Source: Candidatus Nanosyncoccus sp. (lineage in GTDB: Bacteria > Patescibacteriota > Saccharimonadia > Saccharimonadales > Saccharimonadaceae). Taken from it: a DNA stretch of 64,000 nucleotides. Within the stretch, counting starts at the first letter, position 1. Each line of letters begins with the position of its first letter. Position numbers and translations under genes: made by a program. Positions 22,270 to 58,559 of this stretch are shown one piece after another. The notes under the pieces were generated by a model. It worked only from the letters and a program-made list of their open reading frames with translations, was not told the origin of the DNA and did no database searches. The stretch spans positions 23,202-87,201 of the forward strand of contig JAZUNE010000007.1 of NCBI GenBank assembly GCA_045603985.1, read 5' to 3'.

Positions 22270-23184
22270 ATGGATAATAATAAGATTATGATTGTTGGAA
22301 CCGGTAATGTTGGTGCGTCAATCGCCTTTTCTATCATGAACCAACGTACCGCTGTTAATGAAATCATTTTAACTGACATAATTGCAAAAGATGCCGAAGG
22401 CGAAGCGATGGACCTTCGTGATGCTCTCGCCGTCGCCCCTAGCTATGTAAAAATTAAAAACGGAACTTACGCCGATGCGAAAGACTGCGACGTTGTCGTA
22501 ATTACTGCTGGCGCCGCCCAAAAACCCGGCGAAACCCGCATGGAGCTCCTAAAGAAAAATGTTAATATCCTAAAGGGTATGGTTGAACAAATTATGGCTT
22601 CCGGTTTTAACGGTATTTTTCTCGTTGTGACTAATCCGATGGACGTTCTAACTTACTATACAATGAAATTTTCTGGTCTTCCCGCCGAAAAAGTAATTGG
22701 TTCTGGGACCGTTCTTGATTCCGCTCGTCTTAGAACCCGAATTGCCGACTATCTAAATGTTAATCCGAAATCTGTCCACGCTTATCAAATCGGCGAACAT
22801 GGCGATACCGAATTAACTCTATGGTCCCTTGCCGATATTGGCGGACAAAAAGTAACTGATTTTCTTGCTAAAGACCTTCGTAACGGAATCTCCGATTTTG
22901 TTAAAAACGAAGCTTACGACATTATAGAGAAAAAAGGCGCGACTTACTACGGAATTGCAACTTGTGTTGTCGATATTTTAAATTGTATCTTTAATGACGA
23001 ACTTCGCGTCCTCCCCGTCTCTTCCTATGATCATTTTTCCGACACCTCTTTCGGGTTTCCCTCCGTCGTCGGTCGCTCCGGTATTATCCGTCGCCTTGAC
23101 CTAAAACTCTCCGAACATGAAGGCGTCGAACTCCAAAAGTCAATTAATACCCTCAAAAAGGCTATCTCTTCCGTAAAAATCTAA
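22270..23184 (+). CDS. ldh: L-lactate dehydrogenase
   Basis: IVGTGNVGAS NAD fold. AGAAQKPGETR carries the LDH-type Gln rather than the MDH-type Arg. GEHGDT is present. Leaderless start 7 nt after TGCTATAAT. Confidence 0.9.
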   Translation: MDNNKIMIVGTGNVGASIAFSIMNQRTAVNEIILTDIIAKDAEGEAMDLRDALAVAPSYVKIKNGTYADAKDCDVVVITAGAAQKPGETRMELLKKNVNILKGMVEQIMASGFNGIFLVVTNPMDVLTYYTMKFSGLPAEKVIGSGTVLDSARLRTRIADYLNVNPKSVHAYQIGEHGDTELTLWSLADIGGQKVTDFLAKDLRNGISDFVKNEAYDIIEKKGATYYGIATCVVDILNCIFNDELRVLPVSSYDHFSDTSFGFPSVVGRSGIIRRLDLKLSEHEGVELQKSINTLKKAISSVKI

Positions 23185-23201: not shown

Positions 23202-24692
23202 TTACAGGAGCGATTGCATATAAAGCATTAATTCTTCTTTTATAAAATCGTCCGTTACTTTCTCAAGCTCAACCATAAACTTCGGCGCCTGCCTCTTTAA
23301 TCGCTCCTGTCGATATTCCTCATATCGAGCCATTTCTTCTTCCGCTAATGTTTCCGGAAAATTTCGCCCCTTGTAATGAAGCAAAAGCTCCGGCAACCTC
23401 GGGTCATGAAACTCCGGATGAAAATCCGCTAGCTTGTTCACTTCTGCATTCCTTACCGCTGAAACCTTAACCCTGTCAGTATCGTCTAAAAACCCCTCAT
23501 ATAACGCCGTTTCCGGCTCAACTGCCGGCGGAAATTCCGGCCGATTTTCATATCCACTTCGCATCTGCTCCGCAAATTCCGGATGAGATAATAGTGCCTC
23601 TAAGTTCCTCTGCACTATCTCTTTCGTTAATCCAATCTTCCCCCAACCGCCATTACTTTCTAGCACACTTATCGGCGCCACGGCCGGACATTTATTGAAG
23701 CATAATTCTTTTACAATTGGGAAATATGATGAATGTGTGGCTAAAATCTGCTTTTTCTGAGACTTATTCTGATTTGAATTTTCAACACGTATATTCCTGA
23801 CGTGCCCGAGAGGTTCGTCCCGAAGGGACGGTTCTCCCGGTGCACCAGCGTATGACGTGCTTGAAAATTCAAGTCCTGTCGAAGAAAAAGCAGATTTAGC
23901 CATTAATTCATCAAAATTATATCTTAAATCATATATTAATATATTCCCATTCCGCGAGCTCGTAAGCGGAAAAGCTACGGTGGTTTTATTAAATTCCGAC
24001 GAATATCTCCCTGAAGCATAAACAAACGGCTTTTTATTATCTAGATTAACTAACTTCTTCACTTCTTTTTTATCCCGCATTTTATATAAATATTCGAACA
24101 GTTTCGGTTGCTTCTCTTTTACCATTTTCGCAACCGCAATCGTCGCATAAACATCCGAAAGCGCATCGTGCGCATGTTCATGTGAGAGTCCGTTTAATTT
24201 AGTTAATAATTCTAGCCGATTTGTCGCTTTCCCGTCTTCCGTAACCGGCCACTCTATCCCCTCCGGTCTAAGCGCCCGTGTTAACCTAACTACGTCTAGC
24301 ATGTCCCATCTCGACCGCCCCTCTTTCCACTCCCACTCATACGGATCATAAAAATTCCGCCATAAACAAGCCCGCATAAACTCATCATCAAATCTCACCG
24401 TATTATATCCAACCGCAACCGTCTCCGGTACAAAAATCTCCTCCGAAATATACCGACAAAATTCCGCCTCTTTTATCCCGTCCCTTAAGGTATCCTGCGG
24501 AGTAATCCCCGTTACATTAATTGCTGAAGGACTTGGCAAAGCGTCATCCGTCATTTTTACTAAAATATTTACCGGCTCCCCAATCGGCTCTAAATCTAAG
24601 CTTGTCCTCTGCCCCGCAAATTGCATAACCCGATCCACTCTCGGATTAAGCCCGCTCGTCTCTAAATCATAAAAGAAAAAACTTTTCCCCAT
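23202..24692 (-). CDS. sbcB: Exodeoxyribonuclease I
   Basis: N-terminal FFFYDLETSGLNP...QFAG DEDD exonuclease motif and the H..HDALSDV motif. 496 aa, including a 33-aa palindromic-element insert. Confidence 0.85.
   Translation of the reverse strand: MGKSFFFYDLETSGLNPRVDRVMQFAGQRTSLDLEPIGEPVNILVKMTDDALPSPSAINVTGITPQDTLRDGIKEAEFCRYISEEIFVPETVAVGYNTVRFDDEFMRACLWRNFYDPYEWEWKEGRSRWDMLDVVRLTRALRPEGIEWPVTEDGKATNRLELLTKLNGLSHEHAHDALSDVYATIAVAKMVKEKQPKLFEYLYKMRDKKEVKKLVNLDNKKPFVYASGRYSSEFNKTTVAFPLTSSRNGNILIYDLRYNFDELMAKSAFSSTGLEFSSTSYAGAPGEPSLRDEPLGHVRNIRVENSNQNKSQKKQILATHSSYFPIVKELCFNKCPAVAPISVLESNGGWGKIGLTKEIVQRNLEALLSHPEFAEQMRSGYENRPEFPPAVEPETALYEGFLDDTDRVKVSAVRNAEVNKLADFHPEFHDPRLPELLLHYKGRNFPETLAEEEMARYEEYRQERLKRQAPKFMVELEKVTDDFIKEELMLYMQSLL
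23774..23872. repeat. GC-rich palindromic mini-element (copy C), in frame inside sbcB
   Basis: Arms at 23774-23790 and 23855-23872 (TTGAATTTTCAA(G)CACGT) are 17/18 complementary. There is an inner CGTCCC-GAA-GGGACG hairpin. The length is 99 bp, or 33 codons. Confidence 0.75.
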
Positions 24693-25450: not shown

Positions 25451-26164
25451 TTAAAGCGAATTGTAGTCTATCCCGTAATAAGCGTATTGTAATCTCATAT
25501 ACGCTTCATCTAACTCTTCCGCAAGCTTCTCTAGCGAATCTTCCCTCGCTACCGCCATTACGATAAACCGAAGCGGTTTATTATATCCGCCACAGATTTC
25601 CATCGAATCCCCATAAGCCAACTCCCCCGGAATCGTAATCCGCCGAATTCCGCCAACTTTCATCCCCTCTACTCCTAAATTCCACCCTTCAATCATCCCA
25701 AGTGACGGATCTAAAATTTTCGCAAATGCCGTCGGATTATCATTATCATCAAACGACGAATCAAAAACCGACTCATCCGCACAATATCCAACATAATAAG
25801 CTAGATAATTCGAACCATCAGTATTCACCGTTTCGCCAGAACCGGCTTTTAATTCTTTTATTTGTAATCCATTTTCATTCGCCGAAGTCTCGTTAAAAGC
25901 CTTGACCTCAGATTTATAAGCGATAAATTCCGAAAAATCATCTTTTGTCTCTTCCGAAAATTCCGCTACTTTCGCATTATAAGCTTCTTCGTATTCCGCT
26001 ATCTTTGCCTCATCAACTTCTGCCTCACCAGTCGAACTAGAAGACTTACTCCCGTTTATAACAATCGCCGCATAGCTCGCGATAATCGAACCGAGCATTA
26101 AAACCGCAATTAAAATAATAAAAAACCTCTGTTTCCCACTCGTCTTTAATTCTTTCTCTTCCAT
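25451..26164 (-). CDS. Membrane-anchored FKBP-type peptidyl-prolyl cis-trans isomerase
   Basis: C-terminal FKBP block (GMKVGGIRRITIPGELAYG) and an N-terminal TM. The tracked start at 26185 lies inside the rplO terminator and the TGGTATAAT box, so the start is moved to M8 (26164). Confidence 0.75.
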   Translation of the reverse strand: MEEKELKTSGKQRFFIILIAVLMLGSIIASYAAIVINGSKSSSSTGEAEVDEAKIAEYEEAYNAKVAEFSEETKDDFSEFIAYKSEVKAFNETSANENGLQIKELKAGSGETVNTDGSNYLAYYVGYCADESVFDSSFDDNDNPTAFAKILDPSLGMIEGWNLGVEGMKVGGIRRITIPGELAYGDSMEICGGYNKPLRFIVMAVAREDSLEKLAEELDEAYMRLQYAYYGIDYNSL

Positions 26165-26183
26165 AATAGATAAATTATACCAC

Positions 26184-26213
26184 AAAAAATACCCCCATAG
26201 GGGGGTATTTTTT
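26184..26213 (-). terminator. Intrinsic terminator after rplO
   Basis: ATACCCCC-ATA-GGGGGGTAT hairpin followed by a T-run on the minus strand. Confidence 0.8.
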
Positions 26214-26670
26214 AGTCTTTTTTAGGTTTCTTTAAGATTTCGACTTTTTTAAACGAACCGCCAACTTTTTTAATCGCTTCGACCGCCGACTTCGACACAA
26301 ATTGCGTTTCTAAGTCGATTTTCTTCGTTAATTCTCCCCGCGTAATAACTTTAACCTTTACAAACGGCGAAGAGATTAAGGACGCTTCAGCTAACTTATA
26401 GTTATCAACTTTCCCCGAAAGTTCGTTTAATCTATCAGTATAAACTACCTCGGCCTTCGGATGAAAACTCTTAAAACCTTTTAACTTCGGGACTGCTTGC
26501 ATAATTGCACGTTGTCCGCCCATAAACCCAGCCGGCATCTTCCGATGACCAGTACGGGATTTTTGCCCCTTTGTCCCACGCCCAGCAGTTTTACCTTGAC
26601 CCGCCGAAATCCCCCGACCTTTTCTCGACGGACGCGTATTTTTCTCTACTACTAAATCATTGTATTTCAT
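26212..26670 (-). CDS. rplO: 50S ribosomal protein L15
   Basis: GRGISAGQGKTAGRGTKGQKSR signature, in the canonical position after rpsE. Confidence 0.95.
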   Translation of the reverse strand: MKYNDLVVEKNTRPSRKGRGISAGQGKTAGRGTKGQKSRTGHRKMPAGFMGGQRAIMQAVPKLKGFKSFHPKAEVVYTDRLNELSGKVDNYKLAEASLISSPFVKVKVITRGELTKKIDLETQFVSKSAVEAIKKVGGSFKKVEILKKPKKD

Positions 26671-27413
26671 TACTTAGTCTCCTTTTTCGTAGTAGCTTTC
26701 TTCGCTACCGGCTTTTTCGATTCAGCCTTTTTCGTCTCAACCTTCTTTCCCACTTTCACTTCAGCCTTCGGAGCCTTTTTCGGAGCTTTTTCTTCCGGTT
26801 TCGAAATCTTAGTCATAACCCATTCTTTTCGCGGAGTCTGTTGTCTTAGGCCCTCAATAACCGCATAAGCGATATTGACCTTATTAGTCGAACCAAGCGA
26901 TTTCGAAATCAAATTCTTTACCCCAGTAAGACCCATAATCGAACGTACCGTTCCGCCTGCGATAATCCCAGTACCCGGCGCTGCTGGCTTCATTAAGACA
27001 TCCGCGCCAGTCACCTTAGTTTGAGTTTCATGACAAATCGTTTCACCGTCCATATTAAAGGTAATCATCGACTTTTTTGCCTTAGAAGTCGCCTTCGCGA
27101 CCGCGGTCGTTACATCGTTGCCCTTAGCGACCCCGATACCAACTTTATTTTTATGATTTCCAATCGCGACTAATGCTTTAAATCTCATTCGGCGTCCCCC
27201 CGCAACCGTCCTCGAAACACGATCTACTGCGATTGTAATCTCATCAAACTCCTTCGGACCCGCATCCGCCTTTACACGGTCGCGCCGATTTCGTCGGTCC
27301 ATTTTCCTTCCGGAAATATCCCGCGTTACTTTCGTTTCCGCCGTTTTATCGTCCATTTTAAGAGTACCGGACTTATTAATTACTCTAGGAGCTTTTTTCT
27401 CATTTTCTGGCAT
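26670..27413 (-). CDS. rpsE: 30S ribosomal protein S5 (with N- and C-terminal extensions)
   Basis: S5 core (VDRVSRTVAGGRRMRFKALVAIGN...GTGIIAGG). The start is set at MPENEKK (27413), 1 nt after the rplR stop. Long Lys-rich C-terminal tail. Confidence 0.93.
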   Translation of the reverse strand: MPENEKKAPRVINKSGTLKMDDKTAETKVTRDISGRKMDRRNRRDRVKADAGPKEFDEITIAVDRVSRTVAGGRRMRFKALVAIGNHKNKVGIGVAKGNDVTTAVAKATSKAKKSMITFNMDGETICHETQTKVTGADVLMKPAAPGTGIIAGGTVRSIMGLTGVKNLISKSLGSTNKVNIAYAVIEGLRQQTPRKEWVMTKISKPEEKAPKKAPKAEVKVGKKVETKKAESKKPVAKKATTKKETK

Positions 27414-27414
27414 A

Positions 27415-27744
27415 TTAGAACTCCAATCCTTCCTTCCGAGCCGCCTCGGCAAGCGCCGACATTCGCCCAGCATATAATTTAGAACCTCGGTCAAAAACTA
27501 CTTTCGAAATTTTTGCCGATTTAGCTTTCTTTGCGATTTCTGTTCCGATTTTTTCCGCTTTTTCCATCTTCGATCCCGTCATCTTACTTCCAACCGTCGT
27601 CGCATAAGCAAGCGTTGTCTTCTTATCGTCATCAATGATTTGTGCCGTAATATTTAAGTTCGAAAAATGAACTGAAAGTCTCGGCCGTTCGCTCGTACCA
27701 TAAATCTTAGCTCGGGTACGTTTTGCTCTCATATTCTTATTCAT
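27415..27744 (-). CDS. rplR: 50S ribosomal protein L18
   Basis: RKRTRAKI...RPRLSV...FDRG...YAGR signature and operon position. Confidence 0.95.
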   Translation of the reverse strand: MNKNMRAKRTRAKIYGTSERPRLSVHFSNLNITAQIIDDDKKTTLAYATTVGSKMTGSKMEKAEKIGTEIAKKAKSAKISKVVFDRGSKLYAGRMSALAEAARKEGLEF

Positions 27745-28280
27745 TATTTCTTACCCGCCTTTCCTGCTTTACGAAGAATAACTTCGTCGACATACTTAAT
27801 ACCTTTACCCTTATAAGGCTCAGGTTTCTTGAGAGCACGGATTTCTGCAGCAACTTGACCAACTTTTTGTTTGTCAATCCCAGATACCGTGATTTCCATT
27901 TTATTAGTAGTAAGCGTTACCCCTTCCGGCGCTTTATATTTTACCGGGTGAGAGAACCCTAAAGCCATCTCAATTTCCTGACCTCCGCCAGAAAGTCTAA
28001 ATCCGACCCCATTAATCTCTAATTTTTTCTCAAACCCCTTAGTTACGCCTAAAACCGCGTTATTTAAAAGCGCGCGTTGTAGACCATGCCAGGCTCGAGA
28101 TTTCGGTTCGTCATCCTTACGGGTAACGATAATTTGCGCCCCTTCAACCTTCGTTTCAGTCCGAGGTTGCACCGGTACAATGAGTTGACCCTTCGGGCCT
28201 ACGACAGTAATTTCGCTGTCGCCGACCGTGATTGTCACTCCCGCCGGAATATCGATGGGCTGTTTTCCGATACGACTCAT
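27744..28280 (-). CDS. rplF: 50S ribosomal protein L6
   Basis: MSRIGKQPI..P.GV signature. Has its own promoter (TGATATAAT at 28315-28323, minus strand) and an SD. Confidence 0.95.
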   Translation of the reverse strand: MSRIGKQPIDIPAGVTITVGDSEITVVGPKGQLIVPVQPRTETKVEGAQIIVTRKDDEPKSRAWHGLQRALLNNAVLGVTKGFEKKLEINGVGFRLSGGGQEIEMALGFSHPVKYKAPEGVTLTTNKMEITVSGIDKQKVGQVAAEIRALKKPEPYKGKGIKYVDEVILRKAGKAGKK

Positions 28281-28344
28281 ATCTTTTCCTCTTTAAATTA
28301 ATATTATCTAACTAATTATATCACGAAACTCTAGAAGTTTCAAG

Positions 28345-28375
28345 AGAAAATCCCCCGTTTTAAGGAGGATTTTCA
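28345..28375 (-). terminator. Intrinsic terminator after the 633-aa surface-protein gene
   Basis: AATCCTCC/GGGGGATT stem followed by a T-rich tract on the minus strand. Confidence 0.65.
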
Positions 28376-28451
28376 CGCTATCTTTATATTATAGCACACT
28401 TTTTTATTTTTGTCAATATTATCTCTATTTTGATGTATGACCAACCCGGAA

Positions 28452-30353
28452 TTATTTCCTTCTAATTAGATAAGCGAAGCTCGTAGCCGAAACAATCAAG
28501 CCGACTGCAATTGCCGCAACAATCGCCGCGCTCATAGCAGAACTACCTTCTCTCGTCATCGTACCAGTATCTGGGCTTGCGGTTGCTTCTTCAGTTTCGT
28601 TTACCCCCACTATCGCATATGTAGATAAGTGGCTTGTCTCAAATGATAGATAATAACCTTCTTCATCCGGATCACTTAAATAAGCTTCTACCCGTTCTTT
28701 TTCTACACCGTCTTCGAAATAAACTGCGTAGAGTTTATCGTAGGCCGCAAGCTTAGTATGAGTTTCTTCGTCAATATCAATATACACAACCAATGCATTA
28801 TCTTTTACTTCAATCACCTCACCATCGCGATCAAACATATCAATATCAATCGCACCAATCAATTCACCACCCTTGTTTTCATCCAAGCTTAACCCCTCTG
28901 TGTCAACTTCGATTGCCGAAAGTGTCGCCTTTCTGTCTGCGATCAGCTTTTTTCCGAATTCTACTGCAGCAGATACATGGCCTTCTTCTTCACCACCATC
29001 CTCGACCCAATAGTTTTCGTAGTCAATTTTCTTCGGAGCAATATAGTTTACTTCTTCATCATTCTCATCAATAAAAGTATCGATTTCGTCAGCCGGATCT
29101 AAAGTGTTTGGGTCAAGTACTTTGAATGCATTTTCCTCAAAGTCTAGCGCCGAAACATAGCCATCTGCTATATATTTTTCATCTAGGTCTTTGTTGTATG
29201 TTCCACCAGTTACGAATCCAGTCACATCTTCACTTGACACAATCGGATCACCATTAGTTGCATTAAATGTACCTCCAGTAATCGATAGCTCAACTTTCGC
29301 AACATCCTCCTCACTGTTATTCTGAGGGTTGCTTTCACCAAAAACTACAGGAGCTGTAAAATTACCACTATTTACGGTTGCTGAAATTGCTTGCTTGGTC
29401 GTATGTTGAGCAACCGCAATAGCCACACCGCTAGCAGTAGAACCGTTACCGTTTGGATTAAATACATATTCAGCATCCGCTGGCACACTAATAGTTGCAC
29501 CATTCACGTTCAGCGTACCGGCACGCACTTCAACGCCACATTTTGCCGCATTAATAGTAATCTCCTCGCCAAGCGTTGTCAAACCGTTTGCTTGTGGCGC
29601 ATACACACCTAAATCACCAGAATTAATCGTACCAGCATTCAAAGTCAATTTTGCATTAGTACCTTCGTTGCTACCACTAGTTGAACCATTTCCGGAAACA
29701 CCGATTGAACCGTCCGCAGTTGCACTTACAGTACCTCCGTTCATTTCAAACTCCGCGTCCTTAAACACCGAAACACCCCACGTGTCACCAGTGACCGAAC
29801 CGTCATTCATCACAAACTTTGCACCGTTGCTAACGACTACTGCAACTGCCGTATCGCTACCGCCATTAATAGTACCGCCGTCCATCGTGAACAAGCCAGT
29901 GTCGTAATAAATAAACGCAGCTTGTCCCGCAGTCTCAATAGTCCCACTCTTCAACGTAGTATTATTATAAACATAAAGAGGCGCATAAATACCGCCCGTC
30001 TCAACAATTTTACCATTCTCGCCGGCATAAATAGTCAAATTACCTTCAGAGTTTATGATCGACCAACCATCGCTAGTCAACGTATAATTATTCAGATAAA
30101 GATTCATGTCAGCACCAGTTCGAAGGTCAGTCGTTAGATCAAACGATCCGCCCATCAAAACTGTAGACTTGTGTGATGTAAAAGCATCACTAAGTTCCGC
30201 GGTGCTCGTCACGACGGCGCAATTCTCAATCCCCTCACAAGAGTCGAGCACTCCGATCTCGCCAGCCGCGAACGAGCTTACTGGCACCAAAATCCCCGAC
30301 CCAAACACTAGCGCCGCCGCCGACAAAGCAGAAGCTATTCTATATTTAGTCAT
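28452..30353 (-). CDS. Cell-surface protein with parallel beta-helix-like repeats and a C-terminal sorting-signal-like anchor
   Basis: Signal peptide, then repeated G.(T/I).(N/G)G.. turns (GGTINGGSD, NDGSVTGDT, NGGTVSATADG, NAGTINSGD, NGATISV). The C-terminus has SPDTG, a hydrophobic stretch and RRK. Confidence 0.7.
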   Translation of the reverse strand: MTKYRIASALSAAALVFGSGILVPVSSFAAGEIGVLDSCEGIENCAVVTSTAELSDAFTSHKSTVLMGGSFDLTTDLRTGADMNLYLNNYTLTSDGWSIINSEGNLTIYAGENGKIVETGGIYAPLYVYNNTTLKSGTIETAGQAAFIYYDTGLFTMDGGTINGGSDTAVAVVVSNGAKFVMNDGSVTGDTWGVSVFKDAEFEMNGGTVSATADGSIGVSGNGSTSGSNEGTNAKLTLNAGTINSGDLGVYAPQANGLTTLGEEITINAAKCGVEVRAGTLNVNGATISVPADAEYVFNPNGNGSTASGVAIAVAQHTTKQAISATVNSGNFTAPVVFGESNPQNNSEEDVAKVELSITGGTFNATNGDPIVSSEDVTGFVTGGTYNKDLDEKYIADGYVSALDFEENAFKVLDPNTLDPADEIDTFIDENDEEVNYIAPKKIDYENYWVEDGGEEEGHVSAAVEFGKKLIADRKATLSAIEVDTEGLSLDENKGGELIGAIDIDMFDRDGEVIEVKDNALVVYIDIDEETHTKLAAYDKLYAVYFEDGVEKERVEAYLSDPDEEGYYLSFETSHLSTYAIVGVNETEEATASPDTGTMTREGSSAMSAAIVAAIAVGLIVSATSFAYLIRRK

Positions 30354-30461
30354 TTTTCTCTCTCACCTCCTTATATATTATACTTATGATTATAGACCGC
30401 CACTTTTTTAAAGTCAAGCATTTTTAAGTTAATTTTAAACTCATTTTCGCACTTGGCAAAA

Positions 30462-30503
30462 ACAAAAATACCACTATATATTATATAGTGGTATTTTTTT
30501 AAA
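30462..30503 (-). terminator. Intrinsic terminator after the 1579-aa adhesin gene
   Basis: 14-bp perfect stem AATACCACTATATA/TATATAGTGGTATT followed by a T-run. Confidence 0.85.
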
Positions 30504-30511
30504 AATTATTT

Positions 30512-33500
30512 CTACTGCTCCCGCTTCGTAAATATAAACGCCATTCCTACTAGAGATATTCCAATCATCATAGCGACAGATATAGCCATATTCACACTCG
30601 CCGAATTCTCGCTATCGGTTTTTATCAATTTAGTTAATTTGCCCGTCTCCGGCGTCATCGGCAATCCACCATAACCCTCATCTTCCTCCGGCTCATGCAT
30701 ATTAACGAAAATCGTAGTACGCCTACCGCTAATCTCATCAATTTGTTCGTATCCTTCTATCTCCAGCGGTTCTTCAGCATAATATTCAATTTCTTCAGCA
30801 TTTTCATCCGCAACCGGCAAATTCTCAAATGTCCACTCCCAAACGTCACTAGTCTCCAAATCTTCTCCCCAATCTTCCTCAGTCTCATTTTCCGCCGACA
30901 AGTCCTTAGTCTCTATCGTCTCGCCATTCGCCAACAGATTGATTGCTAATTTTGTTGGACGAGAACCGTCCTTATTATGCTCGTCTTGCCAAACCTTTAC
31001 TACTCTATATGTAGTTTTATTTACTTCATATTCGTTCGTAATCTCAAACACTACTTCGTCATCCCTATCAACTTCTTTCTGAATATCATCATCACCCGAT
31101 ACCGTCAAAGTAAAGTTCTCCACTTCGGCATTCTTTTCCGAAACCGTATATACACCAGTTGGCACTTCACCTTCTACCGTACAGATAATCTCATAATCAC
31201 CAGATACAGTACAACCTTCTCCAATCTTCAAAACCATCTCACCTTTATCGCCAAAATCCTCTGGGCCAGTAATTGTAAACTCCAAATCTTTCAATACCTC
31301 AGCCTTCAAGCCAACTGTGGTCTTTTTAATCGTGAACGATTTTGCCATACTTCTAGTCCATGTGTTCGTAATATCGTTGCCCAAAATCACCTTCTCCCAC
31401 TTCCCGTTTTCAATCTCAGCATCTTCACGGTAAATCACTATCACACTTTCACCCTCATCAAACGTAGTCTCACCAATTTTGGATTCTTGCACCGTATAGA
31501 TAATCGGCTCACCGTTTTTATACTTATAAAGCTTCTTAAAAGTATACTTCCATTCAGTGGCCGCCGAAATAACAACTGGCTCACCTAGCCTCGTACCATT
31601 AGCGTATAACTCAACCGTAACAGTAATTGGTCTGACTAATTCATTACCTTCACCATCCCAAATCTTCTGCACTGTCAATTCACCAGTATCATCATACAAT
31701 GCTGGCTCATGAAAATTAGTAATTACTCCATTCTCATCAACTGTTACAGTATAATTATCATCACCAGTAAACTCAATGCAAGAAATCGCTTCACCACTAC
31801 CACTACACGACGATGCCTCTACAACTTCGTAAGTAATTTCTTCACCGTTTATAGTCTCTTTCGGCAAATGCGTAAACTTATAATTATCCTTATTCACAAG
31901 CGCCAATTTTTCGTATGCTACATATTTGCCACTATTATTCTTTACTGCTACATAATAATTCGCATAATTCTTACGCAAACCATCACGATCCTCATCATCA
32001 TCCCAAACCTTAGCAGCAGTAATATCGATATAGGAAATCGGCTCATTTTCAACCGTAAATGTACGACTCTTAATATCATATTCATATCCATCTACCTGCG
32101 AAGTGCTAAATGAAAAGACGTATTCATAAAAGTTCTTAAGATTAATAAGATCAACAGTATTAAGTTTCTTAATTTTAGTAATATTGATATTTGGTTCAGT
32201 AGAAACTAGTCTATAACCTTCTGGCGCACCAGTCTCCTTTAGAGTGTACTCACCAGCATCCAAATTGCTAAAAGTAGCTTCACCATCAGCGTTAGTAGTT
32301 GCTGTAAAAGTAGTACCGTTCTTGAGCTTAAGTTCAAAGGTTGCGCCTTCGAGAGGTTCTTCGGTCAAAGCATCAATCTTTTGAATATTAAGGCTGGTTA
32401 AACCAGTAACGCTTTCAGTAGCTGGTGTCCAAGTATTTTGAAGAATATAATCTTCAAGAGTCATGACCTTCCATCTTCCCACAACGGCATACTGACCATT
32501 ATTCTCTTCAGAATCATATTTAAAGAAAACCTCTAGTTCATCATCATAGGTAGCACCTTCAATGGCACTTTCCTTGATCGAATAAACAATCTCTTCACCA
32601 TTATCATATTTCGGAAGGTCAATAAATGAACCCTTCCAATCAGTATCAGCAGTAACTTCTTCGGTTTCACCGGTAGAAACTACTTTACCATCAGCGCCTT
32701 TTTTGAAAAGTTCAATAGTGATACTGCCAGGAAGATTCTCACCACTTAACACGTCGCCATCCGCATCATACCAAGTCTTCTCAAAGTCTACTCTGGTTTT
32801 TTCATCAAGGAATTTATTAGTAACAGTGACGGATGAAGCAGTATTACCGGAAACCACATAATAACCGTCTTCTGTTTGAGTGGCATCAATCGGGTCACTA
32901 ACGCCGTATGCTTCTTCATAAACGATAACCGGATTTGTATCGTATCCATTTTTCTCGGTTTCTTCAACATAATACTGCACGCCAGAATCAACGTTAACAA
33001 TACGAATAGTATCACCAACATAAATTGTTTCGTTTATTTTACCATTACCGTATATATGTTCACTGCGACTATATTTGATATTCCCTTCATCATCATATAC
33101 GATATTATCTTCATATTCTGGGTTTTTCTCACCATAGTAAATACGATAGTCATATGCATATGGATTACCATCGGCATCTACTAGATGGATAGTAACGTCA
33201 AACGAGTCATTAGTATCAATCTCGTTGCCATTTTTATCGACGACTTTCTTCTGGATGTTAATACCACCTTTCAATGTATTAGTAGCAGAAACAGAATCCA
33301 TCGCCTTGAATTCTTCGATACCAGTAATATTATCAGAAGCATCGCGAGTAAAGAACACATTTGTTAGTTCATTATCAACTATCATTGGATGATAAACATA
33401 GTTTGTTAATTCGAAGTGACCATTAATATCCTCTTCCTCAAAGTAGTAGTCGTGACCAGTTTCAAGAATAATATAAGTCTTACCACCAAAAGAATATTCA

Positions 33501-35251
33501 GTATGACCGGCTTTCAAAAGATTATAATTTGGAGAATCGTTACTAATCATTATGCCCGGCGCAACAGAGATATAATCATTTAGCTTCCAATCATTATCTT
33601 CAGTAAGATGAATATCTTGTTCGTATGGGCTGTTGTCTTTGTAAAAGTTTAGAACAACCTCACCGTTAACTTCCTCACGCTGTGATGGATCCAAATCATC
33701 TTCCCACTTTTTCTCAAGGGTTAGCTTCCTAGTGTCAAGAGGCATCGGTCCATCGTTTTCTATATTAATAGTAGTTGGGTCAGAAACAGTAGTAGTTGGC
33801 ACACCATTTACAGTCACGGTCTCAACAGTTGAATATGTAAGCGTTGGCCATTTAGTATTAGTTTGCAAACTATAGCTATCTCCATCTTTTACAATAGATG
33901 CTTTTTGCGCATCAGTTAAGCTATCATATGAAATTCTGCCGTTATTAAGATCAGCGAGTAAATCATAAGCTTCCTGAGATGGCCAAACGGTAAATGAGAC
34001 AGTCGCAGTTTCGCCATCTTTAAGAGTAGTATCGCCAAGATCCCAAACTACGGTTTTAACACCATCAATAGTTTTGATCTCAGCTTCTGGCGCATCAGCC
34101 CAAGCAACACCGCCCTTAGTATAAACAAAGTTGTCTGGATTGCCGCTTACGGCAGCAGTAGTAAGCGCAGTAATCCCATCAGTAAACTTAATATTAGTAA
34201 GAGAAAGAGCATTAGTGATTTGATCGACAATTTGCTGGAAAGCTTCTTCCAAAGCGTCTTGATCGGAAGCATCGTAATATTTGTCAGAACCGGCGAGGTT
34301 TTGCATAACAGTTGCATTACCAAATGCGCCGACTGTATATAATGTAGTATTGCTTGATGCGGCAATCTCGTCGGCTACGGCTTTAGCAGCATTAAAATTC
34401 CAATTGTTTGGATCAGAATTACCAGAACCCCATTTATTAGCAGTACTATTCCAGCCACCATTACTTGACGGAGTATTATAATTTGCGCCCATTTGCGAAT
34501 CGCGGAAGGTTGGATCACCATCGGAAACGAAAATTACATAATTGGTTTCATCTGGTTGAGAACTAATACGATTATCAACCAAAGTTTTAGCGGCAGAAAG
34601 AGCAGTCTCCCAGTTAGTCCCACCTTGCGCACTATTTGGTACACTATATCCATTTACCGCATTATTTAAAGTTGTTTCACTGGTACTCCAATCGGTAGTA
34701 CCCCTAACACTAGTAGCAAAGTTTACGAGAGAAATTTCGACGGTGTCGCTATCGGCGCCTTCAAGGTTATTATTAGCGAGAAGAGTCGAAATAAGATTAG
34801 TAGTTGCGTTTTGAGCAACAGTGAGACGATTAGATGTACATCTATAATGATCGCCATTATATTCAGTTCCACCCGTTCCATAACGCCAAGCACGATTTTG
34901 ACGATATAAAGGAATGTAGTCACTCCCTACAAGACCGTATTGACCGGTACTATTATTATTATAATTATTATTAAGCGTACAATCTGTACCGTATTCCATT
35001 GAATTCGATGTATCAAACACGACAACAACATTAGCCTTTGAGACTGAAGTCTCAGAATTCTGCTTGCCAGTTACACTTAAAGTAATGTTATAAGTCCCGT
35101 CACCATTCGGTGTCACAGTTTTTGAATTTATTGGGACTTCGCCAGCCGAATTCTCCCCTTCCGCATAGGCATTAAAAAAAGTCATTGGCATAGAACCAAA
35201 AACCATTACTATCGCCGCGAAAATATTAAATATTTTGCGTTTTAATCTCAT
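30512..35251 (-). CDS. Giant vWA/CnaB/SpaA-domain adhesin (Gram-positive tip-pilin or MSCRAMM-like)
   Basis: Signal peptide, then a vWA MIDAS motif (VVVVFDTSNSM, ...VSDGDPT). At least five CnaB-type repeats (KKWEDD, KTWYDADGD, KVWDDDEDRDG, KIWDGEGN, KVWQDEHNKDGSRP). One SpaA-type domain (GATFELK...NADGEATFSNLDAGEYTLKETGAPEGY). The C-terminus has LPMTPETG, a TM and basic residues. Confidence 0.85.
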   Translation of the reverse strand: MRLKRKIFNIFAAIVMVFGSMPMTFFNAYAEGENSAGEVPINSKTVTPNGDGTYNITLSVTGKQNSETSVSKANVVVVFDTSNSMEYGTDCTLNNNYNNNSTGQYGLVGSDYIPLYRQNRAWRYGTGGTEYNGDHYRCTSNRLTVAQNATTNLISTLLANNNLEGADSDTVEISLVNFATSVRGTTDWSTSETTLNNAVNGYSVPNSAQGGTNWETALSAAKTLVDNRISSQPDETNYVIFVSDGDPTFRDSQMGANYNTPSSNGGWNSTANKWGSGNSDPNNWNFNAAKAVADEIAASSNTTLYTVGAFGNATVMQNLAGSDKYYDASDQDALEEAFQQIVDQITNALSLTNIKFTDGITALTTAAVSGNPDNFVYTKGGVAWADAPEAEIKTIDGVKTVVWDLGDTTLKDGETATVSFTVWPSQEAYDLLADLNNGRISYDSLTDAQKASIVKDGDSYSLQTNTKWPTLTYSTVETVTVNGVPTTTVSDPTTINIENDGPMPLDTRKLTLEKKWEDDLDPSQREEVNGEVVLNFYKDNSPYEQDIHLTEDNDWKLNDYISVAPGIMISNDSPNYNLLKAGHTEYSFGGKTYIILETGHDYYFEEEDINGHFELTNYVYHPMIVDNELTNVFFTRDASDNITGIEEFKAMDSVSATNTLKGGINIQKKVVDKNGNEIDTNDSFDVTIHLVDADGNPYAYDYRIYYGEKNPEYEDNIVYDDEGNIKYSRSEHIYGNGKINETIYVGDTIRIVNVDSGVQYYVEETEKNGYDTNPVIVYEEAYGVSDPIDATQTEDGYYVVSGNTASSVTVTNKFLDEKTRVDFEKTWYDADGDVLSGENLPGSITIELFKKGADGKVVSTGETEEVTADTDWKGSFIDLPKYDNGEEIVYSIKESAIEGATYDDELEVFFKYDSEENNGQYAVVGRWKVMTLEDYILQNTWTPATESVTGLTSLNIQKIDALTEEPLEGATFELKLKNGTTFTATTNADGEATFSNLDAGEYTLKETGAPEGYRLVSTEPNINITKIKKLNTVDLINLKNFYEYVFSFSTSQVDGYEYDIKSRTFTVENEPISYIDITAAKVWDDDEDRDGLRKNYANYYVAVKNNSGKYVAYEKLALVNKDNYKFTHLPKETINGEEITYEVVEASSCSGSGEAISCIEFTGDDNYTVTVDENGVITNFHEPALYDDTGELTVQKIWDGEGNELVRPITVTVELYANGTRLGEPVVISAATEWKYTFKKLYKYKNGEPIIYTVQESKIGETTFDEGESVIVIYREDAEIENGKWEKVILGNDITNTWTRSMAKSFTIKKTTVGLKAEVLKDLEFTITGPEDFGDKGEMVLKIGEGCTVSGDYEIICTVEGEVPTGVYTVSEKNAEVENFTLTVSGDDDIQKEVDRDDEVVFEITNEYEVNKTTYRVVKVWQDEHNKDGSRPTKLAINLLANGETIETKDLSAENETEEDWGEDLETSDVWEWTFENLPVADENAEEIEYYAEEPLEIEGYEQIDEISGRRTTIFVNMHEPEEDEGYGGLPMTPETGKLTKLIKTDSENSASVNMAISVAMMIGISLVGMAFIFTKREQ

Positions 35252-35333
35252 TTTATATACTCCTTCGCTAGTATTTTGCCGCCATTATATCACGCCCGCC
35301 AACTAGGAGCAACGATAAGCATTTTCAAAATTA

Positions 35334-35364
35334 CAAAAAAATAACCCCGTAGGGTTATTTTTTC
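35334..35364 (-). terminator. Intrinsic terminator after rpsH
   Basis: ATAACCC-loop-GGGTTAT hairpin followed by a T-run on the minus strand. Confidence 0.8.
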
Positions 35365-35369
35365 GCATT

Positions 35370-35771
35370 TTACCAAACTTTCACTAAAATTTCGCCACCT
35401 AATCGATTTTTCTTCGCTTCACGTCCAGTCATCAAACCTTTAGAAGTAGATACAATAATCATTCCTCGCCCAGATTTTACCGTCGGCAAATCATCTGCCG
35501 ACGAATAAACTCTTCGACCCGGTTTTGAAACTTTAGAAATTTCGTTTATCTTCGCGTTAGTTCCGGCTTCGTTAATGATAACTTTTAACATCCCTCTCGG
35601 ATTTCCATCAATTATTTCAAAATCATCAACGTACCCATTCTTTTTTAAGACTTCAATAACCTGAACTTTAAGCTTAGAAGTAGGAACGAAGATTTCATTT
35701 TTAGAAGCACTTATCGCATTACGAATACGCGTTAAGAGATCTGCAATTTGATCAGTAGATTGTAATGACAT
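35370..35771 (-). CDS. rpsH: 30S ribosomal protein S8
   Basis: DQIADLLTRIRNA signature and a C-terminal GGEILVKVW. Confidence 0.95.
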   Translation of the reverse strand: MSLQSTDQIADLLTRIRNAISASKNEIFVPTSKLKVQVIEVLKKNGYVDDFEIIDGNPRGMLKVIINEAGTNAKINEISKVSKPGRRVYSSADDLPTVKSGRGMIIVSTSKGLMTGREAKKNRLGGEILVKVW

Positions 35772-35786
35772 ATTTTCTCCTTTCTC

Positions 35787-36056
35787 CTACCAACTACTCT
35801 TAGTTACTCCAGGAATCTCGCCCTTCGAAGCTTTTTCCCGAAAATTAATACGACTAAGTCCAAACCGACGCATATATCCCCGCGGACGACCATCTAAAAG
35901 ATCGCGGTTTTTAAGTCGCGTCGGCGAAGCGTTACGCGGAAGTTTCTGTAAACCTTCTAAGTCTCCCGCCGCTTTTAATTCAGCACGTTTAGCCTTATAT
36001 TTTTCATTCATTTTGCGCCGTTTTTCATCTCGGAGTACTGCAGACTTTTTAGCCAT
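35787..36056 (-). CDS. rpsN: 30S ribosomal protein S14 (long, non-zinc type)
   Basis: MAKKS...[26 protein letters not shown]...W. The start is set at 36056, 1 nt after the rplE stop. Confidence 0.92.
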
Positions 36057-36057
36057 C

Positions 36058-36669
36058 TTACTTGTCTCCTTTCTCAAACGGCATACCGAAGAGTTCTAAC
36101 AATTTTAGACTTCCTTCCTTTGAACCATTTTTAATAATAAATGTTATTTCTAAACCGTGTAAGACGCTTGCATCTTCGAAAGTAATTTCCGGAAATACAG
36201 TTTGTTCCTTTAATCCTAAATTATAATTACCTTGAGCGTCAAATGCCTGCCTAGAAACTCCATGAAAGTCGCGTACATGCGGTAAAGCGATATTAATTAA
36301 CCGATCAACAAATTCATACATCTTGTCATTTCGAAGTGTAGTAAGATATCCAACCGGCGCACCCATTCCTTTTCGAATTTTAAAGGTCGCGATTGATTTC
36401 TTTGCTAATCTCGAAGTTGCCGCCTGGCCAGTAATTTTCGCAAGCGTAAGTTCTACTGTTTCAGTAAATCTTTTATCTTCGCGTTTCTTACCAACTCCTG
36501 AAGAAACAACAACTTTTTTAAGTTCTGGAACTTGATTTATATTTTTTAAACCTAGTTCCTTTTTAAGTTTCGCCTTTAGCTCCGTATTATAGAGAGCTTT
36601 GAGGCGTGGTTGTGCTAATGTCTCAGCTTTTTTCGCCGTAGCCTTAGCAGCCGTTTTCTTTTCCGCCAT
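36058..36669 (-). CDS. rplE: 50S ribosomal protein L5
   Basis: L5 blocks ([32 protein letters not shown]) with an Ala/Lys-rich N-terminal extension. Confidence 0.95.
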
Positions 36670-36956
36670 TATTTAGCTCCTTTCTTTGCTTTAGCGTTTT
36701 TCTTATCATTTTTCTTCTCGGACTTATATTCCGCCGACTCAATTAATTTCAAATTCGAGAAATCAATCCCTACATGAATAGTTTTCTTCCCGCCCGCTGG
36801 ATTATATTGCGTTTTTTTCATGTGTCGCTCAACTAATCCAATTCCTTCAAGGCAAGCTTTCCTATTCGTTCGGTCAATTCCTACAATCTTAGCCTCAGCT
36901 CCCTTATGATTACCAGAAATTACTAAGACTTTATCATTTATCTTCAAACTTTTCAT
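36669..36956 (-). CDS. rplX: 50S ribosomal protein L24
   Basis: KOW motif (INDKVLVISGNHKG) and operon position. Lys-rich tail. Confidence 0.93.
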   Translation of the reverse strand: MKSLKINDKVLVISGNHKGAEAKIVGIDRTNRKACLEGIGLVERHMKKTQYNPAGGKKTIHVGIDFSNLKLIESAEYKSEKKNDKKNAKAKKGAK

Positions 36957-36957
36957 C

Positions 36958-37326
36958 TTATAGTACCTCCGGTGCTAAGCTTATAATCTTCGTAAAACCT
37001 TTGTCGCGAAGCTCCCGCGGAATCGGTCCGAAAACCCGCGTCCCTTTAGGAGTTTTATCATCGTTTACGAGTACTGCTGCATTTTCATCAAACCGGATTG
37101 TTGAACCATCTGGTCGTCGAATCGGCGCTACCGTTCTTACGATAACCGCGCGAACTACCGCTTTTTTCTTCACGTTCCCAGTCGGAGAAGCCTCTTTAAC
37201 TGAACAAGTTACTATATCACCAACCCGCGCATATCTTGCCCTAGTTCCCCCAAGTACCCGAATTACTCCGAGCTCTTTCGCACCCGAATTATCCGCTACT
37301 TTTAATCTAGTTTCTTGCTGTATCAT
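36958..37326 (-). CDS. rplN: 50S ribosomal protein L14
   Basis: [17 protein letters not shown] signature. Confidence 0.97.
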
Positions 37327-41943: not shown

Positions 41944-42114
41944 TTACCTTTCCTTTATTTTATTTAACTTCTGCGTCCCTTTAAGACGCTACTCGCATAT
42001 TTTGCCTCTGTACACCAAGCAAAATACACTATTAAAACTAGACTTTTAGTCGGTTTCCTTAGGTTTAAACCCTCAGACCTCTCCTTATGTCTAGGTATCT
42101 ATCTCATTATATCA
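41944..42114 (-). promoter_or_regulatory. rplC-operon promoter (TGATATAAT) plus a structured 5' leader of about 155 nt
   Basis: Minus-strand TATAAT at 42111-42106 with a TG extension. The leader contains hairpins TATTTTGC..GCAAAATA and GCGTC..GACGC. SD AAAGGAAAGG precedes the ATG. Confidence 0.55.
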
Positions 42115-42173
42115 CAAAAACTTTATCCTGTGAACCCCTATTTTTTAGAAAAACATTCTATCTTCTTATTATA

Positions 42174-58292: not shown

Positions 58293-58368
58293 GGTTCTGT
58301 AGCTCAGTTGGTAGAGCAGAGGCCTGAAGAGCCTTGTGTCGCTGGTTCAAGTCCAGCCGGAACCACCA
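58293..58368 (+). tRNA. tRNA-Phe (GAA), CCA encoded
   Basis: Manual cloverleaf: acceptor GGTTCTG/CGGAACC, D-arm GCTC/GAGC, anticodon loop CTGAAGA, T-arm GCTGG-TTCAAGT-CCAGC, then A plus CCA. Confidence 0.95.
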
Positions 58369-58388
58369 TTAAAAAATAGCGACTTTAT

Positions 58389-58465
58389 GGGCCGGTAGCT
58401 CAGCTGGTTAGAGCACGGGCCTTTTAAGCCCGGTGTCGAGGGTTCGAGCCCCTCCCGGCTCACCA
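58389..58465 (+). tRNA. tRNA-Lys (UUU), CCA encoded
   Basis: Acceptor GGGCCGG/CCGGCTC, anticodon stem CGGGC/GCCCG with loop CTTTTAA, T-arm GAGGG-TTCGAGC-CCCTC. Confidence 0.95.
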
Positions 58466-58482
58466 TATCGTCGCTTTGCCTC

Positions 58483-58559
58483 GGGCGGTTAGCTCAGTTG
58501 GCTAGAGCGTTTCTTTGACGTAGAAAAGGTCAGAGGTTCGAATCCTCTATCGCCCACCA
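58483..58559 (+). tRNA. tRNA-Val (GAC), CCA encoded
   Basis: Acceptor GGGCGGT/ATCGCCC, anticodon stem TTTCT/AGAAA with loop TTGACGT, T-arm AGAGG-TTCGAAT-CCTCT. Confidence 0.93.

Follow-up and report, generated by a model that had tools for sequence, protein, structure and literature searches.

Evidence for an old, species-variable cell-surface locus between rpsH and rplF in the spc operon of Candidatus Nanosyncoccus

Introduction

The capsule genes of pneumococci (cps) lie between dexB and aliA, and O-antigen clusters lie between galF and gnd; both loci are hypervariable and are exchanged by homologous recombination. The S10-spc-alpha cluster of ribosomal-protein (r-protein) genes, for its part, is the textbook case of a gene order frozen by selection. 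Here we report on the junction between two genes of that cluster, rpsH (ribosomal protein S8) and rplF (L6), in a 64,000-nucleotide stretch of Candidatus Nanosyncoccus sp. (contig JAZUNE010000007.1 of assembly GCA_045603985.1, positions 23,202 to 87,201), which we refer to as the window. The ribosomal cluster lies on the minus strand of the window, and 7.1 kb separates rpsH (35370-35771) from rplF (27744-28280), a space taken up by two genes for predicted surface proteins of 1579 and 633 amino acids (aa).

Our results favor the interpretation, which we regard as likely, that this spacer is an old, genus-wide cell-surface locus whose content varies between species and which is nested in the spc operon. 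It resembles the cps and O-antigen loci in its fixed address, its conserved flanks, the differing gene sets of close relatives, its mosaic alleles and the absence of an integrase, and many Nanosyncoccus slots hold genes that cps loci also hold, encoding LCP, CpsB, a CpsC/D-like kinase, glycosyltransferases and a flippase-like protein. In contrast to those loci, its flanks are two genes of one r-protein operon, its cargo often consists of protein adhesins, and exchange can be inferred only between species, the two species that were sampled in depth being clonal.

The literature that was searched contains no description of a surface-gene slot between rpsH and rplF. Nearest in concept is the “invasion-separation” break-up of the S10-spc-alpha cluster (Brandis 2021, PMC8046335), in which foreign genes likewise come to lie between conserved genes of a translational cluster whose halves stay in place. 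Those events altered how the operon cluster is concatenated, or which genes it contains, in individual lineages of Gammaproteobacteria and Bacilli (PMC8046335), whereas the present slot lies inside the spc operon, is found across a genus, and appears to have been reused repeatedly with changing cargo. What is new here is the address, inside the spc operon, and the scope, a genus-wide slot that holds adhesins, capsule-type clusters or nothing.

A genus with tiny genomes evidently tolerates changing cargo, of 0 to more than 10 kb, where two neighbouring spc genes meet, while a separate downstream promoter is kept, and the slot shows how the spc operon can be opened harmlessly. The locus gathers the genes most likely to contact a host bacterium or an animal, namely adhesins, a beta-helix protein and capsule-type clusters, and its sharp differences between close species offer concrete candidates for the host specificity of Saccharibacteria, which grow as episymbionts on other bacteria. 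Flanked as it is by universal genes, it would also make a simple marker locus for the typing of metagenomes.

Results

The junction in related species

One genome per species was scanned with the S8 protein as query, and the 80 closest loci (S8 identity 76-88%) were taken. They belong to Candidatus Nanosyncoccus (Saccharibacteria group G3) or to unnamed Saccharibacteria, mostly as metagenome-assembled genomes (MAGs) from the ruminant gut; single loci are cited below by L numbers. The junction is occupied in most of the 80 species, by homologous but diverged genes. Between rpsH and rplF the gap measures 53-155 bp in four loci, 423-538 bp in three, 1.9-4.6 kb in ten and 5-9.7 kb in 18, and it is still open 10 kb after rpsH in a further 26; the remaining loci end too early for the gap to be assessed. 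Nearly all cargo open reading frames (ORFs) run with the operon (223/244). By clustering, about 29 loci encode a relative of the 1579-aa protein and about 24 one of the 633-aa protein, the former frequently preceding the latter.

A preliminary description of the window had read the two genes as a single inserted cassette, and had proposed a synteny comparison across relatives as the check on whether the cargo varies. That comparison reveals cargo that differs widely among the 80 loci, from 0 to more than 10 kb and including cps-like loci, which is not what one insertion of two genes would leave. The same description had also considered an ancient fixed arrangement; the locus is indeed clade-wide and ancient, yet it is not fixed.

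Other slots hold a three-gene module with an amidase (Amidase_2), or long runs of glycosyltransferase genes (GT2, GT1/GT4) together with TupA-like ATP-grasp, CapD-like and DegT genes; a multi-span membrane protein within these runs looks flippase-like by eye and has no Pfam match. Directly upstream of rplF in the L6-anchored locus L091 stand genes for LCP, Wzz/kinase, CpsB, UDP-glucose dehydrogenase, an epimerase, an acyltransferase and GT2. Genes of the same cps-like kind recur 8-10 kb after rpsH in L033, L069, L075 and L027, and in L078 they lie between rpsH and rplF in a closed junction of 3.3 kb. All six of these relatives can be classed as carrying a cps-type locus, and the window cannot. 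Judged from gene order, the junctions of more than 10 kb are very probably continuous, with an estimated length of at least 13-15 kb.

Turnover of the cargo

Similarity of the cargo appears largely uncoupled from similarity of the r-proteins, the large adhesin family giving a Spearman correlation of 0.20 between the two identities and the 633-aa family one of 0.30. In L012 and L016 the r-proteins are 99.2% identical and 9 kb of flanking DNA is 88.8% identical; alignment of their adhesin genes is confined to ~230 bp at the start and 1.9 kb at the end (85-87%), leaving an internal stretch of 3.4 kb without detectable similarity, and their VWA heads fall into two different deep clades. The r-proteins of L006 and L018 are 98.7% identical, compared with 41% for their 633-type proteins. 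L081 shares with the window a 633-type protein (88% identity) and flanks (82-84%), and in place of the large gene of the window it carries two genes, one for a VWA protein of 1042 aa and one for an unrelated protein of 1576 aa. L074 equals L048 with one extra 633-type gene.

On a ribosomal tree (neighbour-joining, 976 r-protein residues) junctions that are short or free of cargo are interspersed with occupied ones. The short junctions are recognizable as deletion scars by the pieces that they retain. L068 has kept a 37-aa signal-peptide ORF, homologous to a full-length cargo protein of L051, together with a C-terminal anchor fragment; in L076 an 80-aa fusion of signal peptide and anchor is left; and in L004 the rpsH terminator is joined to a -10 remnant of a promoter found at cassette borders (P1, see below), followed by its hairpin and by the promoter of rplF (P2). 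The empty junctions look like secondary deletions.

Anatomy of the junction in the window

The junction contains exactly two long ORFs, co-oriented with the operon, and genes with Pfam matches to S8 and L6 flank them; the split of the spc operon and the identity of its genes stand as first described. The features, in the direction of transcription, are as follows.

35370-35771, minus strand: rpsH, ribosomal protein S8 (Pfam Ribosomal_S8, 6.6e-41), final gene of the upstream r-protein unit
35334-35364, minus strand: terminator hairpin after rpsH (arms 35328-35347 and 35352-35371; AAAAAATAACCC-tac-GGGGTTATTTTTTT)
35252-35325, minus strand: promoter and 5' untranslated region (5'UTR) of the VWA adhesin gene (GCTTATCG-TTGCTC-17-TGaTATAAT-GGCGGCAA...AGCGAAGGAG)
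30512-35251, minus strand: gene for the 1579-aa surface protein (ORF and Pfam domains)
30464-30498, minus strand: terminator of the 1579-aa gene, formed by a perfect palindrome of 17 bp with a T run behind it
30389-30417, minus strand: promoter of the 633-aa gene (TTGACT-17-TATAAT, 11 of 12 matches, without TG extension), with the Shine-Dalgarno (SD) sequence AAGGAGGTGA
28452-30353, minus strand: gene for the 633-aa surface protein (ORF, structure model, sorting-type end)
28388-28416, minus strand: P1, a perfect sigma-70 promoter (TTGACA-17-TGcTATAAT, 12 of 12 with TG)
28345-28375, minus strand: terminator hairpin of the 633-aa gene, with a weaker 5-pair core at 28352-28369 and then a T run
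28315-28343, minus strand: P2, promoter of rplF itself (TTGAAA-17-TGaTATAAT, 11 of 12)
27744-28280, minus strand: rplF, L6 (Pfam Ribosomal_L6, 1.8e-33), which opens the downstream unit
26184-27744, minus strand: rest of the downstream unit, with rplR (27415-27744), rpsE (26670-27494) and rplO (26212-26670)
26184-26213: bidirectional terminator closing the downstream unit after rplO

Promoters and terminators at the junction, as judged by sequence signals, bear out the division into separate transcription units that had been proposed, and hairpins were confirmed at all three places where terminators had been reported. A promoter scan over 12 kb gave 43 promoter-like sites, compared with 29.2 +/- 5.2 in shuffled sequence, and its top three matches, which agree at 11-12 of 12 positions, are all coding-strand sites in intergenic spacers. 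Each cargo gene had been credited with an extended -10 promoter and a strong SD sequence. This holds for the 1579-aa gene, which has TATAAT at 35289-35284 with a TG extension and AAGGAG as SD sequence, whereas the 633-aa gene has the SD sequence and no TG. P1, which was absent from the earlier list, comes after the stop codon of the 633-aa gene and ahead of the terminator of this gene, and the T tract of that terminator overlaps the -35 element of P2. The 9-bp hairpin of the terminator is conserved as a structure insofar that, in an alignment of 18 sequences, 7 of its 9 predicted pairs show compensatory changes on both sides in at least one sequence. In 20 species the promoter and 5'UTR of the VWA adhesin gene take the form GCTTATCG-TTGmCC-17-TGaTATAAT-GGCGGCAA-...-AGCGAAGGAG; mean pairwise identity is 0.685 for this block, 0.750 for rpsH and 0.504 (unalignable) for positions 91-1500 of the adhesin coding sequence.

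None of the marks of a mobile island (mobility gene, flanking repeats or tRNA attachment, deviating composition) is seen at the junction. The composition of the cargo genes is native, with GC fractions of 0.389 and 0.441 compared with 0.406 for the window, and their GC skew has the same sign as that of their neighbours. As the preliminary description had noted, the window junction contains no integrase, transposase or recombinase gene, and a search for direct repeats flanking the cargo found none; nor was any integrase, recombinase or transposase found in the cargo families examined in relatives. The nearest tRNA genes, at 58293-58559, are 23 kb from the junction.

Several non-coding elements recur among the junctions. 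An AT-rich palindrome of the type seen at 30464-30498 (ACCACTATATA-w-TATATAGTGGT) has 11 of its 12 matches inside junctions; it directly follows rpsH in L027, L051, L063 and L068, is also present in L026 and L053, and is sometimes preceded by a conserved TTGACCGCTTTACGCTAAAATA stretch. We rejected it as a recombination site, since it is of low complexity, and treat it as a shared terminator type. In about 19 loci P1 with its hairpin is found at cassette borders, behind a stop codon that belongs either to a cargo gene or to rpsH (listed: L001, L003, L010, L013, L034, L048, L055, L056, L059, L060, L064, L067, L072, L074, L081 and L085), and at both ends of the junction in two of them, L001 and L081. 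P1 reads into the hairpin ~20 nt downstream and would yield an RNA of ~45 nt, which could be a small RNA, an attenuator or a mere relic; Rfam (E-value mode) gave zero matches on 27000-37000. We do not claim P1 as an att-like site: the exact 29-mer is about 3-fold enriched in junctions (12 matches, and 8 outside), and the general form TTGACA-N12-TGTGnTATAAT is the promoter consensus of the genus, with 235 matches.

rplF as the start of an independent unit

An extended -10 consensus promoter lies 20-36 nt before the rplF start codon in 36/36 loci where rplF is reached, including the cargo-free loci L020, L037 and L070 with their spacers of 53-71 bp. The preliminary description had supposed that rplF gained this promoter through the insertion, a view at odds with its presence in those short spacers; the cargo-free states may themselves be secondary, so the order of promoter and first insertion is not set by them. 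A hairpin terminator homologous to that of the window directly follows rpsH in most occupied loci and is absent from L020, L037 and L070. Given the rplF promoter in all states and the rpsH terminator in most occupied loci, rplF-rplR-rpsE-rplO appears to be an independent unit throughout the genus, and this independence would explain why the slot tolerates cargo. The rpsH terminator and the separate promoters also insulate the cargo, and the anatomy lends no support to the suggestion that the adhesins profit from a highly expressed locus.

The start of rplF is unusually conserved. Over 31 loci the first 60 nt (28221-28280, 20 codons) show 96% (0.961) interspecies DNA identity, compared with 74-82% for the rest of the gene, and codons are identical for 91% (0.909) of identical residues, compared with 43-69% elsewhere. 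When rpsH was examined for a similar effect at synonymous sites, nothing comparable was found. The conserved stretch could serve the new unit as an operator or initiation element at the RNA level, or could stem from homogenization at a recombination border.

The 1579-aa VWA/Cna_B protein

The 1579-aa protein consists of a signal peptide, a VWA domain, DUF7601, SpaA, four Cna_B stretches and a sorting-type C-terminus. Its N-terminus (MRLKRKIFNIFAAIVMVFGS...) is a basic and then hydrophobic stretch; the signal peptides of both cargo proteins were judged by a heuristic. The VWA profiles score above their curated cut-offs (VWA_2, 37.6 bits against 27; VWA, 30.7 bits against 23.8), and the DxSxS motif of the metal-ion-dependent adhesion site (MIDAS) is intact (DTSNS, residues 80-84). 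Cna_B (156 bits over the four stretches) and SpaA (74 bits) also exceed their cut-offs; a SpaA E-box, YTLKETGAPEGY, is found at residue 1002. The sorting signal TPETG (1533-1537) is followed by a membrane helix and the basic tail KREQ. The solved sequence relatives are the Staphylococcus aureus Cna B-repeat (1d2p, E 3.8e-32) and, weakly, pneumococcal RrgA.

By these domain tests the protein belongs with the sortase-anchored VWA/Cna_B adhesins and is predicted to be a stalked adhesin with a VWA/MIDAS head. With RrgA, GBS104, SpaC and S. aureus Cna it shares the signal peptide, the MIDAS motif, a SpaA/Cna_B stalk with E-box, and the succession of PxTG, helix and basic tail. It differs from these Gram-positive adhesins, which use LPxTG where the Nanosyncoccus cargo uses [T/A]PxTG, in being encoded by a Saccharibacterium and inside the spc operon. 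Unlike in sortase-assembled pili, the gene has no neighbouring pilin subunit or class C sortase, and no pilin-like or sortase gene was found in the window junction (two genes only) or in the cargo families examined; the protein probably acts as an adhesin on its own and not as the tip of a pilus.

A search with the head (residues 31-660) returned only 144 relatives, the best being from Saccharibacteria (41-47% identity). Next come VWA proteins of gut, rumen and oral Firmicutes (Pseudoramibacter, Sharpea, Chordicoccus) and Coriobacteriia (Atopobiaceae, Parafannyhessea), with 31-39% identity to the query across more than 90% of its length; several of them have LPXTG-type C-termini. This similarity equals that between the two Nanosyncoccus head clades, and in the head tree (neighbour-joining, no support values) an LPETG-anchored group stands beside one of those clades. 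A phylogeny of the adhesin domains had been proposed as a test for transfer from Gram-positive hosts: our comparison makes an old exchange of the head with such bacteria plausible, whereas a recent transfer is not indicated.

The 633-aa protein, a predicted beta-helix

The 633-aa protein also begins with a signal-type stretch, basic and then hydrophobic (MTKYRIASALSAAALVFGSG...), and ends with the sorting signal SPDTG (593-597), a membrane helix and the tail RRK. Pfam and NCBIfam gave zero matches. Its family has 1062 matches, all named ones being “hypothetical protein” of Candidatus Saccharibacteria. A confident AlphaFold2 model based on an alignment of 44 sequences (predicted local distance difference test, pLDDT, 87; predicted template modelling score, pTM, 0.77) shows a long beta-rich region (~45-400), two beta-sandwich (Ig-like) domains (~400-585) and disordered signal and anchor ends. 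When this model was compared with the PDB by Foldseek, all top matches were right-handed beta-helix proteins that bind or cut glycans: the tailspikes of HK620 and Phi92 (gp150), pectate lyase, chondroitinase B, AlgG, alginate lyase and the binding region of the serine-rich repeat protein (SRRP) of Lactobacillus reuteri (5nxk).

The model thus suggests a right-handed beta-helix of the pectate-lyase/tailspike/SRRP fold class for residues ~45-400, and a protein of this predicted class probably binds a glycan and possibly cuts one. It differs from the known beta-helix tailspikes, lyases and SRRP in that it has no sequence similarity to them, and in its wall-anchor-type end and two C-terminal beta-sandwich domains. 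A set of polar residues (E275, R277, Y296, Q316-H317-T318-T319, Q344 and E375) is nearly invariant in the otherwise variable family. Several other large anchored cargo families share its C-terminal “...SDKFSTYAVAY” module.

Members of the family thus occur beyond the junction as well: in another Saccharibacterium a 732-aa paralogue (L082-L084, 10001-12199) lies outside the ribosomal locus, behind groES/groEL. Gene conversion could draw on copies of this kind as donors.

Sorting signals

Both cargo proteins had been described as secreted, anchor-type surface proteins, and their signal peptides and [T/A]PxTG-type ends agree with this; no other protein of the window carries a sorting-type end. 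In the related loci 59 cargo ORFs combine a signal-type N-terminus with a [T/A]P[E/D/N]TG motif, a hydrophobic helix and a basic tail, the motif lying 35-53 residues from the C-terminus. The residue before the proline is T in 29 of these proteins, A in 27, S in two and R in one, and never L. Wall attachment would probably be carried out by a sortase that recognizes [T/A]P[E/D/N]TG, and a sortase family is present in more than half of the genomes of the candidate phyla radiation (PMC6744442). One window match to S. aureus SrtA was rejected as a sortase, the underlying ORF being an rRNA dimethylase.

Discussion

We suggest that the window represents one state of the locus, with two separately transcribed genes for proteins that would be exported by way of their signal peptides and anchored to the wall. 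Ribosomal expression would survive owing to the rpsH terminator and the own consensus promoter of rplF-rplR-rpsE-rplO. The content of the slot would change over species-level time by replacement of whole genes, by replacement of segments such as the adhesin heads, and by deletion, most likely through homologous recombination at conserved borders. Candidate homology arms are the ribosomal genes, the promoter and signal-peptide region of the adhesin, its stalk and anchor, and the repeated promoter-terminator modules; the non-coding pieces among them could serve as arms for segment swaps. Saccharibacteria show natural competence and depend on multiple adhesins to grow epibiotically (PMC10633639), and their competence means that such a recombination route is available to them. 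From its gene content the locus is a strong candidate for host attachment and host range, and a role in attachment to the host bacterium is plausible.

A further-reaching form of this proposal makes the slot the host-range and serotype locus of Nanosyncoccus. Heads, beta-helix proteins and capsule clusters would be swapped between species by natural transformation, with the ribosomal genes and the first 60 nt of rplF as universal homology arms, and the operon would have been co-opted as a recombination scaffold whose downstream half is under independent promoter/operator control. We put this forward tentatively, and consider it rather improbable in its full form.

The interpretation of the spacer as an old, exchangeable surface locus should be viewed with some caution, since several observations weigh against it. 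The adhesin DNA of the window and L016 is 79.8% identical and the flanks are 79.2% identical, which looks like vertical descent. Two species, represented by 24 and 19 contigs, are each identical in architecture and cargo DNA, and horizontal exchange is read from mosaics between species, with no sign of ongoing switching at strain level; the ribosomal and head trees carry no support values. The junctions of more than 10 kb are bridged by homologous gene order across genomes and none is spanned by a single sequence, L075 and L091 being from different genomes and not overlapping. On the protein side, all Foldseek matches of the 633-aa model are weak (E at least 2e-3, hence none at or below 0.001; probabilities up to 0.96; TM-scores 0.2-0.47, and 0.35-0.47 to the target), so that the fold class alone is supported, and some genomes have paralogues of this family at other places, as in L082 behind groES/groEL. 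The sorting motifs TPETG and SPDTG are variants that lack the canonical leucine of LPXTG, no sortase gene was found among the ORFs scanned in the 64-kb window, and tblastn with S. aureus SrtA against ~1.6 Mb of fetched loci gave chance matches only. We infer anchoring, and no more than that, because the available sequence holds no sortase and the motif has no canonical leucine.

Phase variation or rapid switching was rejected for the two sampled populations, where no strain-level polymorphism was seen, and turnover appears to proceed on the time scale of speciation.

Among the alternatives, a single, recent insertion that brought in a foreign cassette of two adhesin genes, by a mobile element or by illegitimate recombination, would account for the split operon, for cargo with its own promoters and terminators, and for the head homologues, 31-39% identical, that are seen in LPXTG proteins of Firmicutes and Coriobacteriia. 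It is contradicted by the synteny survey, in which most of the 80 species have an occupied junction, and fits poorly with an adhesin that has diverged between the window and L016 as far as its flanks, with native GC content and skew, with the lack of an integrase, transposase or direct repeats at a junction far from the nearest tRNA genes (58293-58559), and with an rplF promoter that cargo-free species also possess; we judge it very unlikely. Still less credible is an artefact of assembly or binning, with the contig chimeric at the terminator hairpins, a possibility that the preliminary description had named. The data are admittedly MAGs, in which hairpins and variable regions break assemblies (contig L090, for instance, starts 27 bp before rplF), but the same split is present in dozens of independent assemblies, continuity from rpsH through cargo to rplF is found with different studies and assemblers, the 24 and 19 contigs of two species agree in sequence, and the downstream order L6-L18-S5-L15-FKBP-ExoI-LDH is kept throughout.

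The matching divergence of cargo and flanks in the comparison of the window with L016, the clonal populations within species, the near monophyly of the Nanosyncoccus heads and the loss recorded in deletion scars would all suit an ancient locus that diversifies only in place, by point mutation under diversifying selection, duplication and loss, without horizontal or inter-allelic exchange. The pair L012/L016 argues against mutation alone, because synonymous sites could not diverge so unevenly as to leave 3.4 kb dissimilar between ends of 85-87% and flanks of 88.8%, and the heads of this pair come from different deep clades; the entirely different genes in the slot of L081 and the poor correlation between cargo and flank similarity point the same way, and we hold diversification purely in place to be unlikely. 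A different question is whether the proteins, granted that they are anchored at the surface, serve mainly in host attachment. They could instead act as a glycan depolymerase, for feeding or for penetration of the host envelope, or contribute, with the cps-like clusters, to a protective coat against phages or animal immunity. The beta-helix fold class is common to tailspike depolymerases and lyases, the polar cluster of the 633-aa family is conserved amid variable sequence, and capsule-type genes and the amidase module occupy the slot in other species. Against such functions stand the VWA/MIDAS and Cna_B architecture, which is typical of adhesins (RrgA, Cna), the fact that no catalytic motif can be assigned in the 633-aa protein, and the SRRP adhesin of L. 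reuteri, an equally good structural match. We regard a main function of this kind as rather unlikely.

Additional observations

The spc-type unit of the window ends at rplO, and rpmD (L30), secY, adk, map, infA and rpmJ do not follow. Beyond the rplO terminator are genes for an FKBP-type isomerase (25451-26185), exonuclease I (23202-24692) and L-lactate dehydrogenase (22270-23184), and the order from rplO through these three is also found in L085, L088 and L091. In the single species of L092/L093, a 387-aa gene with a faint RVT_1 match (16400-17563) lies between the FKBP-side genes and exonuclease I. Ribosomal protein S5 (26670-27494) is 274 aa long with the listed TTG start, ~100 residues above the usual length, and its Pfam S5 domains begin at residue 84; the called S5 genes encode 274 aa in L085/L086 and 246-257 aa in L088, L089 and L092.

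Runs of 6-13 G and short repeats of the GGGTT type occur in spacers and promoters just downstream of rpsH in L024, L025, L027, L030, L033 and L043/L044; in L033 a G13 run lies between an adhesin-type -10 element and the next gene. These runs could reflect slipped-strand phase variation or Illumina poly-G artefacts.

A large secreted protein with a “GFSVRCV”-type C-terminus (Fib_succ_major-like by eye) is encoded at 1888-4563 of the window, far from the junction, and the same family (F6) adjoins rpsH, on either strand, in L028, L029, L045, L060, L062 and L071. Pfam gave no match for the family of 1888-4563, and its relatives in L082 and L085 have a faint precomputed match only. A ~570-aa family that adjoins rpsH in some loci was rejected as a transposase and is a secreted protein.

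Most loci have a conserved leader (GGGGTTGGCAAG...TGTGATATAAT...CTAGACATAAGGAGAGGTCC) that precedes the rplC (L3) start by ~60-100 nt, downstream of a promoter and before the first gene of the upstream ribosomal unit (locus coordinates ~3400-3800; window ~42100-42165), and it may be an r-protein leader or an autoregulatory RNA.

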